Assembly: GCA_951406725.2 (NCBI GenBank) | Contig: OX597824.1 | Coordinates: 17,670,001-17,734,000, forward strand | Length of the DNA stretch: 64,000 nucleotides | Direction of reading: 5' to 3' | Source: Octopus vulgaris | Taxonomy: Eukaryota | Shown: positions 22,690 to 51,786 of the stretch, in pieces | Layout: the number at the start of each line of letters is the position of its first letter | How positions within the stretch are numbered: position 1 is the stretch's first letter | Notes under the pieces: model-generated | What the model was told of the DNA's origin: nothing | Databases searched by the model: none | What the model saw: only the letters and a program-made list of their open reading frames with translations | Made by a program: the position numbers and the translations under genes

Positions 22690-22885
22690 ATGAAAAAACA
22701 AGTCAAAAATAGAAAATGCTAAGATAATTTTATAGTGAATCTTTCAGTACCGGTTTCGGTCATTTTGGGACCTTTTCAACTGTAACGATTAAATAATTAA
22801 ATTTAGAAAAATTAGAAGAAAAGGTTTTTTTAAAAGAATATTTCTGTAGTAGTGTTCAGATATAAGTAGCATTCTGCCTTTCTCT
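22690..22885 (-). mobile_element. Penelope-like pseudo-LTR fragment (family of 51513-51786)
   Basis: Sequence identity to 51605-51786 in opposite orientation; (TA)n flanks. Confidence 0.8.
22745..22782 (-). ncRNA. Minimal type I hammerhead, U3:A8 variant
   Basis: CAG-UUGAAAA-GGUC-CCAAAAU-GACC-GAAAC-CG-GUA-CUG. Confidence 0.75.
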
Positions 22886-22916
22886 GACTCCCTTGTTTGC
22901 ACTTATATATATATAT

Positions 22917-23340
22917 AAGAAAATAGTAAAGAGTGAAAAAACGACAGAAGGCTTAAATGTTAAAGAATATATATATTTGCGTCAATATGTCTGGAGAATA
23001 TTGGAAAAATTTTTTTTCCCTTCTTATAATGACATAATTTTATAATTTTTAAAGAAAGACCGGTTTCGCATTTAGCTCTTCAAATTTCTTGCGACGTAAT
23101 GTTTATCTTTAATAGCGTTATCCTTGTTTTTTGCTACGGAGAGTTCTAAATAAGGGAAGGTAGTGCGTGATTTCTTCCGGTGTAAGGGAGATAATCGCTT
23201 AAAAATTTTTTTTTCCTTTTTCTCTTAGTGTGAATTTCTCTGAATTATTATGTTTGGATAGTTGAGTCTGGGTTTGTACTTTTCAATGAAGAATGTTTCC
23301 TTGTCTAGTCTAATTTGTGTTGATGATCCGAAAGCACATT
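22917..23340 (-). mobile_element. Penelope-like element 3' end: GIY-YIG C-terminus + pseudo-LTR
   Basis: Minus-strand peptide CAFGSSTQIRLDKETFFIEKYKPRLNYP (RxxKExxFIxxxKPxLN motif), followed about 150 nt later by a hammerhead; (TA)n at both ends. Confidence 0.8.
23053..23089 (-). ncRNA. Minimal hammerhead, U3-G8 variant
   Basis: AGAAA-U-UUGAAGA-GC-UAAAU-GC-GAAAC-CG-GUC-UUUCU. Confidence 0.65.
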
Positions 23341-23827
23341 ATCTATATATATATATATATATATATATATATATATTTATGTATATATAGTGCAGGTTTA
23401 AACTACAACCAGAATCCCATTCTCACTCTGACATACAAAGAAGCAAACATAATCACATACACACGTACGTTCGCCAAATGCACCGCTGAATCGCACCGAA
23501 CCCGAAACAACGGATTTCTGCATTAGGTCACAGCTGTTGTATATTAAAGCCACGCTCGTTCTGGCAGTGCACGTAGCGATCGAAAGAGTTTGAACATGGG
23601 CACTGCCTTCAAAAGTATATCGGACAATACGTTTGCTACACATTACGAATTTTCTTTTTTACTTGTCCAGGTTTATAAAGTTGTCCAACGTCGTTGCCCA
23701 AGCTATAATCAACGGTTCATTTATTAAATCAGAGAGAGAGAGATGGAAACATGCTTTGTTAGTCGTGAGGATTTTGTTATATCTTTTCATTGAGAACAAG
23801 TTTAATGGAATACAGTTCTATATTTAA

Positions 23828-24047
23828 CCCTTTAGTGTTCAGATTACTCTGTTAAATGTAATACTTTTTCACTCAGATTGTTTTGAATTGATCATGCATT
23901 ATCTTATAGCTTTGAGGTTTCAATGATGTGATTGTTTATTTTTAGAATGTCAATGTAGGTTAGGTGTGAGAGGCTAGATATCACCAGTTTGAATATAAAA
24001 CTTGTAGAATATTTGGGCTGGATATGGCCGGTTTAAACACTAAAGGG
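23828..24047. mobile_element. piggyBac-type MITE (220 bp)
   Basis: TTAA on both sides (23824-27, 24048-51) and 12-bp TIR CCCTTTAGTGTT...AACACTAAAGGG. Confidence 0.88.
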
Positions 24048-24125
24048 TTAAGAGATGAGGAATTATGTGCATTATTTACATTATTTACATTCGATGGATA
24101 TTTGTCCTCATCTTGTTTGTTGTTG

Positions 24126-24170
24126 ACTCAACGTTCCGGCTGATATACACTCCAGCCTTCTTCAGGTGTC
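24126..24170 (-). ncRNA. Hammerhead, mutated (GGAA in place of GAAA)
   Basis: GACAC-CUGAAGA-A-GGCUG...CAGCC-GGAAC-GUU-GAGUC. Confidence 0.65.
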
Positions 24171-24392
24171 TTGGGAAAATTTCGAACCTGGGTTCTCATT
24201 GCTAAGGTATTTTTCAATGTTATAATAATAATAATAATAATAATAATAATAATAATAATAATAATAATAATAATAATAATAATATTATTATTATTATTAT
24301 TATTATTATCATTGCTATTGCTTGGAATCTTGGGGTTTGTAGCCCGCGCTCTTACCCATTACGCCATATGTCCAGGTTCGAAATTTTCCCAA

Positions 24393-48071: not shown

Positions 48072-48460
48072 TTCTTTTATTCTTTATTTGTTTCAGTCAT
48101 TTGACTGTGGCCATGCCTTTAGTCGATAAGCACCGCCTTTAGTCGATCAAATCGACCCCAGGACTTATTCTTTGTAAGCCTAGTACTTATTGTATCGGTC
48201 TCTCTTGCCGAACCGCAAAGTGGCGGGGACGTAAACACACCACCATCGGTTGTCAAGCGATTTTGGGGGGACAAAACAGACACACAAACGTATACTCACA
48301 CACACACACACACACACACACACACACACACACACACACACACACACATATATATATATATATATATATATATATACGACGGGCTTCTTTCAGTTTCTGT
48401 CAACAAAATTCACTCACAAGGCCTTGGTGCGCCCGAAGCTATAGTAGAAGACACTTGCCC
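48072..48460 (-). mobile_element. SINE family B, 5'-truncated
   Basis: Match to family B including the internal (CA)n(TA)n. Confidence 0.9.
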
Positions 48461-49082
48461 ATGGTGGGGAATTTCTACACCTTTGAAACCGGGAAAGCGG
48501 ACCCATGAACCTGGCTAGGCTTTAAAAGGGCGAATTTATTTTTATATATTTATATGTGTATGTACTGATACATATGAATGTGTGTCCGTGAATGTGGGTA
48601 TGGGTGAGTGTATAATACGCACACACATGTATACTGGATGGGCAGGTATATGGATGGAAATTTCAGTATATAAATCAAGAGAAACCTACATTAAGAAATC
48701 TTTTATCTTTTAACATTTTTTCCCTCTGGTGTATTATCGACTTTAATATTACTGATGATTAGAATCTATAAGCCTAAAATAAAATATGAGGTAGTCCTTG
48801 TGAGTTTACACACCAGCTACAGTCGTTAATGTGAAACCAGGTATTTCAGAGGACGCTCTTATCCGTGTTCAGGTTTAGGGAAGATCCGGTGTTGATCTGG
48901 CAATTCGAATCGAAAGAAAGACAGCAGATCCAGAAAATCATCAATGGGGGTTCTAAAGGATTGTTAAGGATCCTTCCTGGAACCTTTCACGCAGCAGAAT
49001 TCGCTGTGAGACATCCTCGCACCAAAAGACCGCTTAATCATCCTATATTATGAAGGAGGCACAGTACATATCGGACAATACT

Positions 49083-49313
49083 TATTTCTTTACTACCCAC
49101 AAGGAGCTAAACACAGAGGGGACAAAGAAGGACAGAAAAACGGATTAAATCGATTACATCGACCCCACTGCGTAACTGGTACTTATTTAATCGACCCCGA
49201 AAGGATGAAAGGCAAAGTCGACCTCGGCGGAATTTGAACTCAGAACGGAACGGCAGACGAAATACCGCTAAGCATTTCGCCCGGCGTGCTAACGATTCTG
49301 CCAGCTCGCCGCC
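49083..49313 (-). mobile_element. Young full-length SINE family A with 16-bp TSD
   Basis: catatcggacaatact at 49067-49082 and 49317-49332. Confidence 0.95.
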
Positions 49314-50744
49314 GTTCATATCGGACAATACTGTAGTGAACATGAGAAACATATGACAATGATCATATTGTAGACTCCTAGATCACGTGATTTAAATGCT
49401 GTGACATAATAAGTCGGGAGCGCCGTCCAAGAGGTGACATGTGTTAAGCACAAACAAGGAGGCGCATCTACGATATGACTCGTAGGCATCCAGTTGCGTC
49501 TGTGGTAGAATCGGTAACGTCATTTGGGTTACCGACGGTTTCGGTGGATGGCTTATCTTTCGTTATGACTATCTTGTTGAATATGTGTGCCAAATTTCTT
49601 TCAGCAGCGTGTTTTATTTTCGTCTTTTGTGTGTTTGTTTTAGTTTGTTTTGTTCATTCTCGTTTGCCTGACGCACCCTGATCTGCTTGCATGTGGTTGA
49701 ATGCACGCGTGTGAGTTTTAGCATACATATATACGGGTGAAATGTGATATTTATTAAAATTTGTCACTTAAGTGCACACGCACACACACACACACACACA
49801 CACACAGACAAACATAGGGAGAAAGATAGCTAGATAAAGAGAGAAAGGGTGAAAGAAAGAGAGAGAAAGAGGTTAAAGAGATAGAGAGAGGGAGAGAGAG
49901 AAAAAGAGCGGATGACGTTTTATTTCCAGCGTAAATTCGGGAGCTGCCACGTTGATAATATCGATACGTTCGAAAAACTTTTAAGGAAATTGAACTTTTA
50001 ATCCAGGCCGTGCAGCGTTGCTGTATATCGTCTTCCATTATTATCACATTGAAATTTGTTCGCAAATATATGTGCTCAAACATTGATCAGATACCGAGAG
50101 GCCTCACCCAGGTAACAATATATGCCAATACGTAATATATTGGTGTACCATCGGAAACTAAACCTAAACCCTTCCAAAATTACTTCATACAGTAATTTTT
50201 GGACAGAGTGAATCCGAAACCTATCAAAACAAGGATATTCTAAAAGTAGCTGAATAAGAGTTCCATGTATGGAAATTTGAAAGCGAATATATAAAGGGCA
50301 ATTTTGCTCGAGGCCATCATGCTTATATTATATGACAGCTCATCTGATTTTGTCTACCGCCATTCTAACGGCCTCAAATTTTTGAAGAACAACATTACTG
50401 TGGCATATAATTAAACTGCAGGAATTTTTCGCAATATTTTGTTTTTATACCGCAAAAATTAAGATTCGGATATACAAGAATGACGGATAGACAACACGAA
50501 TTTAGTTATGGCGACTTGGCAACGCGTCAGTCATAAAAAATGCCGACACTTACATAGATACATAGATATCATGATATTCACAATGCTGCAAATATCGCAT
50601 AAGAGATAGCAGCTGTAAATTTTCGATATTCTGGGAACTTAAGTCTTAGTTGAGGTGTCTCAATATCCATTAAGTAAAGCAGGGTACTTGGTGAAAAGTT
50701 TCTATTGAATATTACCAGAGTACCTCACAAGAAGGTGGTACATA

Positions 50745-51162
50745 CTCTTAACTCTTTTAGTTGTTTCAGTCATTTGACTGCGGCCATGCTGGAGCACCGT
50801 CTTTAGTCGAGCAAATCGACCCCAGGGCATATTCTTTGTAAGCCTAGTACTTATTCTAACGGTGTCTTTTGCCGAACCGCTAAGTGACGGGGACGTAAAC
50901 ACACCAGCGTAGGTTGTCAAGCGATGTTGAGGGACAGACACAGATACACAAACATATACGTACACACACACACGCATACATATATATATACATATATACA
51001 CCGGGCTTCTTTCAGTTTCTGTCTACCAAATCCACTCACAAGGCATTGGTCGGCCCGGGGATATAGTAGAAGAAACTTGACCAAGGTGCCATGCAGTGGG
51101 ACTGAACCCGGAACCATGTGGCTGGTAAGCAAGCTACTTACTACACAACCACTCCTGTGCCT
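50745..51162 (-). mobile_element. SINE family B, full length
   Basis: Match to 60134-60546. Confidence 0.93.
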
Positions 51163-51512
51163 ATGTCACAAATTTTAGTGGGAAATTGGGCGCATATTAT
51201 GAAACGATTGAATGTGTGTGCGTGCATGTATAAAACTACATATACGCACCCCCATATACTCACACGTCAACATATAACACACACCCCACCCCTGTTTTCC
51301 CCACTCTCACATCCTCCCACCTCCAAACATAATCACACCACAGTACATACCAGTACACCATACACCACGATACTACTACACAACACCACACCACATCACA
51401 TGACACCACCACGCACACACTATCACTGACCACTTCCTAACCCCACATCCCCCTCCATATATATATATATATATATATGTATTAGGGTGAAAAGGAACGC
51501 ACGAGTTGATAT

Positions 51513-51786
51513 ATATGAAAAAACAAGTCAAGATAGAAAAGTTGTTTTAAAGGAATATTTGTATAGTGTTCAAATATAAGTGGCATTTGCCTTTTTTCTG
51601 GGAAAATGCCACTTATATTTGAACACTATACAAGTATTCTTTTAAAAAAAAACATTTCTTTTAATTTTTCTAAATTTAATTATTTAATCGTTACAGTTGA
51701 AAAGGTCTCAAAATGACCGAAACCGGTACTGAAATGTTCTTTATAAAATTATTTTAACATTTTCTATCTTGACTTGTTTTTTCATA
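51513..51786. mobile_element. Fold-back Penelope-like element; right arm carries a U3:A8 hammerhead (51694-51731, +)
   Basis: Terminal arms atatgaaaaaacaagtcaagatagaaaa / ttttctatcttgacttgttttttcatat; inner arms about 51545-51587 / 51605-51647; CAG-UUGAAAA-GGUC-UCAAAAU-GACC-GAAAC-CG-GUA-CUG. Confidence 0.85.

Follow-up and report, generated by a model that had tools for sequence, protein, structure and literature searches.

Minimal hammerhead motifs with a U3:A8 core are inherited with families of Penelope-like elements in the genome of Octopus vulgaris

How did hammerhead ribozyme motifs with a U3:A8 core, instead of the C3:G8 of canonical CUGANGA, come to recur within a short stretch of the Octopus vulgaris genome? 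The window, i.e., the whole stretch of 64,000 nucleotides analysed here (C11:17,670,001-17,734,000), lies within a 2.8-Gb assembly of 227 contigs. It is AT-rich, with a GC content of 26-41% per bin, and rich in microsatellites. An initial annotation named six sites with variant cores by coordinates that are stem I ends, the cores lying a few bases away. Five of them (22745, 51694, 16781, 33475 and 23053) are real type I minimal hammerhead motifs of families of Penelope-like elements (PLEs); the sixth (47338, UCGAAAA) is not a hammerhead. We hold with good confidence that these motifs belong to the pseudo-long terminal repeats (pseudo-LTRs) of truncated PLE copies, and that U3:A8 was fixed in master elements and copied thousands-fold by retrotransposition.

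Direct pairing around the cores gives a stem I of 3-5 bp and a stem II of 2-6 bp, together with a palindromic stem III that reads ACCGGU in families A1, B and C and AAUU in the common form of family K. The core consensus (N3 U4 G5 A6 N7 N8 A9 ... G12 A13 A14 A15.1, U16.1, H17) with a Watson-Crick 3-8 pair is matched by the motifs whose cores start at 22779, 51697, 33480 and 16784. Two of these are near-identical U3:A8 motifs of family A1. The first (22745..22786, minus strand, core UUGAAAA at 22779-22773) was delineated by direct pairing and has a stem II of 4 bp, the segment GAAA-CCGG-UA, a stem I of 3 bp and a predicted cut after 22748. It lies in the 3' end of a 5'-truncated family A1 PLE inserted between (TA)n tracts (22684..22904, minus strand), identified by blastn to loci L123 and L137. 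The second (51691..51734, plus strand, core UUGAAAA at 51697-51703) has the same stem II length and GAAA-CCGG-UA segment, and belongs to a 3' fragment at 51601-51793 with an inverted copy beside it at 51535-51600. Directly before U3, both sites (22782-22779 and 51694-51697) and the family A copies have a pyrimidine-rich tract ending in AG that resembles a 3' splice site. The Penelope element of Drosophila virilis has an intron whose end coincides with stem I (PMC4209133).

The motif at 23053..23089 (minus strand, core UUGAAGA at 23083-23077) belongs to a derived subfamily of family B. Its 3/8 positions form a U-G wobble, and a single unpaired U separates stem I from U3. The surrounding family B PLE 3' end (22904..23340, minus strand; blastn 98% over 439 nt to L137) retains the last 37 codons of the open reading frame (ORF) encoding reverse transcriptase (RT) and GIY-YIG at 23338-23228 (tblastn 92% to residues 739-775 of protein P0001), and this ORF ends 145 nt upstream of the core. 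The 23083 and 22779 motifs, from different families, lie 304 nt apart on the same strand with the ACCGGU palindrome common to both, and a read-through RNA spanning them could form a mixed double hammerhead.

Family C is represented by the U3:A8 motif at 33475..33517 (plus strand, core UUGACAA at 33480-33486), in a PLE 3' fragment at about 33388-33564. It has a stem I of 5 bp and the ACCGGU palindrome; a U-U mismatch opens stem II, for which reason our stem-scored scanner missed it. The hammerhead-like motif of family K (16781..16818, plus strand, core at 16784-16790), also U3:A8, comes from a second PLE lineage and has a stem II of 5 bp and a stem I of 3 bp. It differs from the common family K form by an extra A after A9 and a G for A at 15.2, and one change disrupts the AAUU palindrome. 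The remaining sequence (47338..47372, plus strand, core UCGAAAA at 47343) was rejected as a hammerhead: it fails the consensus at two positions (U4C and G17), has no palindrome and has no second match in the 2.8-Gb genome even with up to 3 mismatches allowed. It is a chance or badly decayed look-alike.

The motifs lie downstream of an ORF encoding RT and GIY-YIG. The P0001 frame is 775 residues long and combines an RT domain with a C-terminal endonuclease region, the two joined by a C-X4-C-X2-C linker. Pfam finds RVT_1 in P0001 and in P0002 and GIY-YIG in the ORF of L123, and homologues carry both domains; the linker, which fits CX2-5CxxC, is seen in both P0001 and P0002. In 28 of the 30 best RT loci a motif is found downstream of RT (20 U3:A8, 8 U3:G8). 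This pseudo-LTR location is directly visible in the window for 23083 and is established through other genomic copies for A1, C and K. The family A1 ORF ends about 670 nt upstream of the motif in L123. For family C, the RT (P0002, in L122) is that of a sister subfamily to which the family is tied by homologous flanks (79% over 252 nt), and for family K a GIY-YIG remnant is found upstream of the motif in 2 of the 45 loci examined. PLE copies of this genome are 5'-truncated, end in (TA)n and frequently form inverted pairs, an arrangement on record for PLEs (PMC8557442); those of the window are lone truncated remnants, probably inert. By their features, rather than by placement against named Neptune or Nematis references, families A, B and C appear to be Neptune-type PLEs.

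Genome-wide counts show how the core is transmitted. They are based on exact patterns and are thus lower bounds, the reversed pattern serving as control, and subfamily and core-state fractions were scored by hand on the first 100 matches listed per pattern. With an ACCGGU stem III, U3:A8 gives 11,583 matches (control 97), U3:G8 430 (control 51), C3:A8 334 (control 53) and C3:G8 315 (control 45). For an ACGU stem III, canonical cores give 19,134 matches (control 1,250), whereas U3:A8 cores give 3,192, fewer than the 3,431 of the control. Since the single variants are about 30 times rarer than the double one and the ACGU class has no U3:A8 excess, U3:A8 is a heritable state of master elements, copied with their families. 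The alternative that it arose by AT-biased decay of canonical hammerheads after insertion would suit an AT-rich genome, both changes being transitions (C to T and G to A), but is barely credible. Decay would favor single variants, whereas double ones exceed each of them some 30-fold; about 18,000 canonical copies above control have yielded no U3:A8 excess; U3:A8 is found in young copies with long open frames; and in family F, described below, the change goes opposite to the AT bias. The counts refute decay at the copy level, and the initial annotation was right that U3:A8 is not its simple product, as family counts and the ACGU-class control agree. The copy-level odds ratio of 25 for 3/8 pairing in the ACCGGU class is pseudo-replicated by copying and is no test of selection.

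Individual patterns have their own composition. That of family K has 3,784 exact matches and no control match, with 95 U3:A8 and 5 C3:A8 among the first 100 listed. The class with a ACAAUUGU stem III has 2,238 matches, 87 of the first 100 being canonical. The U3:G8 subfamily of family B makes up 53 of the first 100 U3:G8 matches. The C3:A8 count is too high: among the first 100 matches listed, 23 are the antisense strand of the RT frame of a long interspersed nuclear element (LINE) and were rejected as ribozymes.

Above control, U3:A8 amounts to about 13,200 motifs (ACCGGU and ACGCGU classes) versus about 20,000 canonical ones (ACGU, ACAAUUGU and ACCGGU), a share of 40% with class fractions taken from the first 100 matches listed per class; adding family K lifts it to about 45%. 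Within the ACCGGU class alone the share is about 90%. Over the five stem III classes counted, some 13,000-17,000 U3:A8 motifs thus stand beside the canonical ones. A search restricted to CUGANGA would miss roughly 40-45% of the motifs counted, an undercount of about 1.7- to 1.8-fold for the classes covered. The suspicion that ribozyme counts in this genome are strongly underestimated is therefore justified in that many motifs escape such a search, but the shortfall is of this size only, the canonical motifs being themselves so numerous. Ribozyme censuses of this genome need descriptors without fixed N3 and N8.

The stem-scored scanner gave six matches in the window, three at named sites and three canonical, versus 0.15 per shuffle over 20 shuffles. 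Both core types therefore occur in the window: the canonical C3:G8 minimal hammerheads are at 24398 (plus strand), of the very abundant ACGU class, and at 57297 (minus strand) and 57357 (plus strand), which form an inverted pair with a ACAAUUGU stem III. A random 594-kb sample gave 15 matches (7 C3:G8, 5 U3:A8 and 3 other) versus 3.0 per shuffle; small as it is, it is consistent with the genome-wide counts. An Rfam scan of the window gave no hammerhead among the 150 matches listed of 308, microsatellite matches dominating, and the RF00163 (Hammerhead_1) covariance model, with which 73 of 263,217 candidates were scored, gave 6 matches across the genome. The window holds four exact ACCGGU-class motifs, versus about 0.3 expected per 64 kb at the genome average, a density to be read with the facts that the window was picked for this finding and that PLEs cluster in (TA)n tracts.

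The number of times that U3:A8 arose was approached with an RT tree of 54 rows, each a single-frame natural stretch: 7 from this genome and 47 from 91 loci in other assemblies. For the most part, duplicates and loci lacking a usable motif on the sense strand were omitted, 11 motif-less rows being kept for structure. Two own rows, L084 and L133, contain single copies with U3:G8 but were given the state of their family, U3:A8; in L133 the link between RT and motif is loose (1.7 kb apart, with a LINE between them). The 7 own rows form one clade (100/100), in which RT identity between A1, B and C is about 55%, and the nearest motif-bearing relatives, all from other organisms, are C3:G8. Families A, B and C therefore share one origin of U3:A8. 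No C3:G8 family was seen nested between them, in a sample without the RTs of families D and E and of the exact family C subfamily of the window. A canonical family G motif has an RT next to it, but this RT belongs to an inserted A1 element and was rejected, so that the tree has no own-genome C3:G8 family with an RT.

Family K belongs to a separate lineage. Its endonuclease best matches a distant clade, with 35-43% identity over 54-98 residues, and no A, B or C locus is among its listed matches; this short remnant suggests that K is probably a second origin of U3:A8. The initial annotation had proposed that the variant arose independently in each of about four unrelated window families. Stems do differ between families, and K is a separate PLE lineage, but that number of origins is very improbable given that the A1, B and C RTs form one clade, that 22745 and 51694 are one family and that 47338 is single-copy and no hammerhead. 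The recurrence is real across PLEs; the window holds two lineages of it, not four.

U3:A8 appears at 5 separate places in the RT tree. The external lineages comprise 28 C3:G8, 4 U3:A8, 1 G3:C8, 1 A3:U8 and 1 U3:G8, so that a Watson-Crick 3/8 pair is kept in 6 of the 7 external departures from C3:G8 (Fisher p 4e-6, with tips taken as independent; p 1e-5 with the ambiguous site L345, otherwise omitted). Positions 3 and 8 thus covary across PLE lineages, as the compensatory change proposed at the outset would have it. The G3:C8 (L329:116) and A3:U8 (L352:1968) cases, both on metagenome contigs, are PLE hammerheads with well-formed stems, and all four Watson-Crick 3/8 options occur naturally. The 3/8 core has likely switched several times in PLEs, and once back to C-G. 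Animal-type PLEs with hammerheads are also present on several contigs of bacterial metagenome-assembled genomes (MAGs; L270-L280), where they most likely represent host DNA that was binned with the bacterial sequences.

The direction of change was read from trees of single families. For family B, 37 copies were used (38 of 65 were long enough and one artefact row was dropped), with positions 3 and 8 masked and an older copy as root. The U3:G8 copies all fall into a single clade (bootstrap 100) that lies within the U3:A8 copies, so that the site at 23053, taken initially for an intermediate toward U3:A8, is a step away from it. The extra unpaired U predates the change of A8 to G and may let the U3:G8 wobble work. 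An external U3:G8 locus, L284:1928, likewise has an unpaired U between stem I and U3.

Family F, outside the window, is arranged in tandem, each unit being about 360 nt long and containing a type I hammerhead; the motif-to-motif spacing in the arrays of families F and R is about 354-363 nt. The first 100 of its 382 matches listed comprise 54 U3:A8, 39 C3:G8, 6 C3:A8, no U3:G8 and 1 other. A tree of 44 of 48 copies over 219 columns was rooted with two outgroup rows from a U3:A8 sister subfamily of 67-70% identity. In this tree the copies with C3 group together (99/97) within U3:A8, and a C3:G8 subclade (88/88) is sister to C3:A8. Two changes suffice, and monophyly of the ingroup U3:A8 copies is rejected (approximately unbiased test, p-AU 0.023). 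The simplest reading is the order U3:A8, C3:A8, C3:G8; a later origin of C3:A8 through CpG decay needs one more change. No RT-like frame was found in the 20 family F loci screened, and the search for an autonomous partner gave decayed fragments and 20 long-frame loci without a full PLE RT under the profile. Family R, also outside the window (L363:871-1233, minus strand), has tandem 362-nt units, a U3:A8 core, an ACGCGU stem III and faint similarity to family F; 94 of the first 100 listed of its 1,928 matches (control 109) are U3:A8.

These trees lead us to a tentative proposal, which we rate as possible though somewhat short of probable: that the genome records compensatory change step by step, from U3:A8 through C3:A8 to C3:G8 against the AT bias in a retrozyme-like family, and from U3:A8 to U3:G8 in a young autonomous PLE after gain of the unpaired U. 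If this is true, mismatched intermediates were still copied, and the natural series would be a direct measure of the cleavage that a Penelope element requires. Whether PLE hammerheads must cleave is a question for which this genome offers ready material, its natural subfamilies being near-identical and covering all four 3/8 states.

Cleavage of any motif described here is a prediction by analogy. Assembled contigs compared with the motifs showed neither an end nor a joint at the predicted cut site or, in family A, at the AG ahead of U3, features that such contigs are unable to reveal. As described for related motifs (PMC4209133), two motifs of one tandem transcript would pair their palindromic stems III into a double hammerhead, which would cut after position 17. 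U3-A8 would stand in for the C3-G8 tertiary pair of the active fold, and long-term selection on master lineages would retain the 3-8 pair. This selection appears soft because masters with U3:G8 (family B) and C3:A8 (family F) still amplified; such single-mismatch masters could provide a route between paired states.

Selection for cleavage is what we infer, and several observations weigh against it or against the reading as a whole. Mismatched subfamilies were amplified: the U3:G8 clade of family B has long open frames and tip branches below 2%, the C3:A8 subfamily of family F is amplified in tandem arrays, and about 7 of the first 100 C3:A8 matches listed come from a further small family, H. 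Stem I has just 3 bp in A1 and K. Predicted monomer folds include both stems I and II in 51697 only, and the minimum-energy dimer was a clean double hammerhead for canonical 57357 but for none of the variant sites. The external count omits weak, antisense or upstream candidates (L298, L331, L337, L339, L346 and L357), some of which would be unpaired at 3/8, and a tree-aware test finds 4 supported independent pairs, 3-4 in the same direction and none opposite (p 0.125-0.25). In vitro, an anole PLE continued to insert when its ribozyme had been inactivated by mutation, although C3G/G8C partly restored cleavage (PMC11167929).

An alternative is that the motif survives because of its fold or as a protein-binding site, or that catalysis has relaxed in these lineages, the 3-8 pair persisting by ancestry and weak structural selection and not because cleavage is needed. 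The recent amplification of the U3:G8 and C3:A8 subfamilies would suit this explanation, as would the loss of one stem I base in most young family B copies, the poor cutting of PLE minimal hammerheads in vitro (PMC4209133, in part) and the dispensability of cleavage for insertion in the anole experiments. We nevertheless consider it unlikely: the 3-8 pair is described as a feature of the active conformation (PMC3884650, in part), and family F as well as 6 of the 7 departures outside this genome kept or restored it. We thus retain a U3:A8 core set in master elements and multiplied with them.

The U3:A8 core itself is already published, in natural hammerheads in 2011 and in PLE minimal hammerheads in 2014. 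The passages of Perreault et al. (2011, PMC3088659) considered here describe natural covariation from C3-G8 to U3-A8, stated to be active in vitro from prior work. Those hammerheads have the same compensatory pair, and the U10.1-U11.1 mismatch noted there is also found at 33480; they are several scattered examples, whereas tens of thousands of copies occur here in one animal genome. Families F and R resemble the animal non-LTR retrozymes of bioRxiv 10.64898/2026.07.22.740005, in the part drawn on, in being tandem arrays whose units, about 360 nt long, each contain a type I hammerhead, and differ by their U3:A8, C3:A8 and C3:G8 subfamilies. With the Neptune-type PLEs, in which a CX2-5CxxC linker connects the RT to a GIY-YIG at the C terminus and which show (TA)n insertion and tandem or inverted arrangements (Craig et al. 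2021, PMC8557442, in part), the A, B and C elements share RT and GIY-YIG, the C-X4-C-X2-C linker, (TA)n sites and inverted pairs; family K differs and appears to belong to another clade.

The closest known system is that of the Cercyon minimal hammerheads of Schistosoma mansoni, where U3-A8 occurs in PLE motifs numbering about 1,300 (Cervera and De la Peña 2014, PMC4209133). The supplement includes UUGAUAA and UUGAAAA cores; the word octopus has no occurrence in the one supplement file searched, and neither a lineage tree of 3/8 states nor a stepwise reversal was seen in the portion of the paper drawn on. Our literature search, whose scope left out most subscription papers, found nothing on 3/8 states in cephalopod PLEs or on stepwise reversal, and the cited papers, in the parts used, leave open the need for cleavage by PLE hammerheads. 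Like the octopus motifs, the Cercyon ones are of type I, with a short stem I, a palindromic stem III, a pseudo-LTR location and U3-A8, and occur mostly as single truncated copies and inverted pairs. The octopus motifs differ by their host and by the share of U3:A8, which is roughly 40-45% over all classes counted and about 90% among ACCGGU motifs. The window thus adds a host and not a kind: the variant is known, yet unusually common in this genome.

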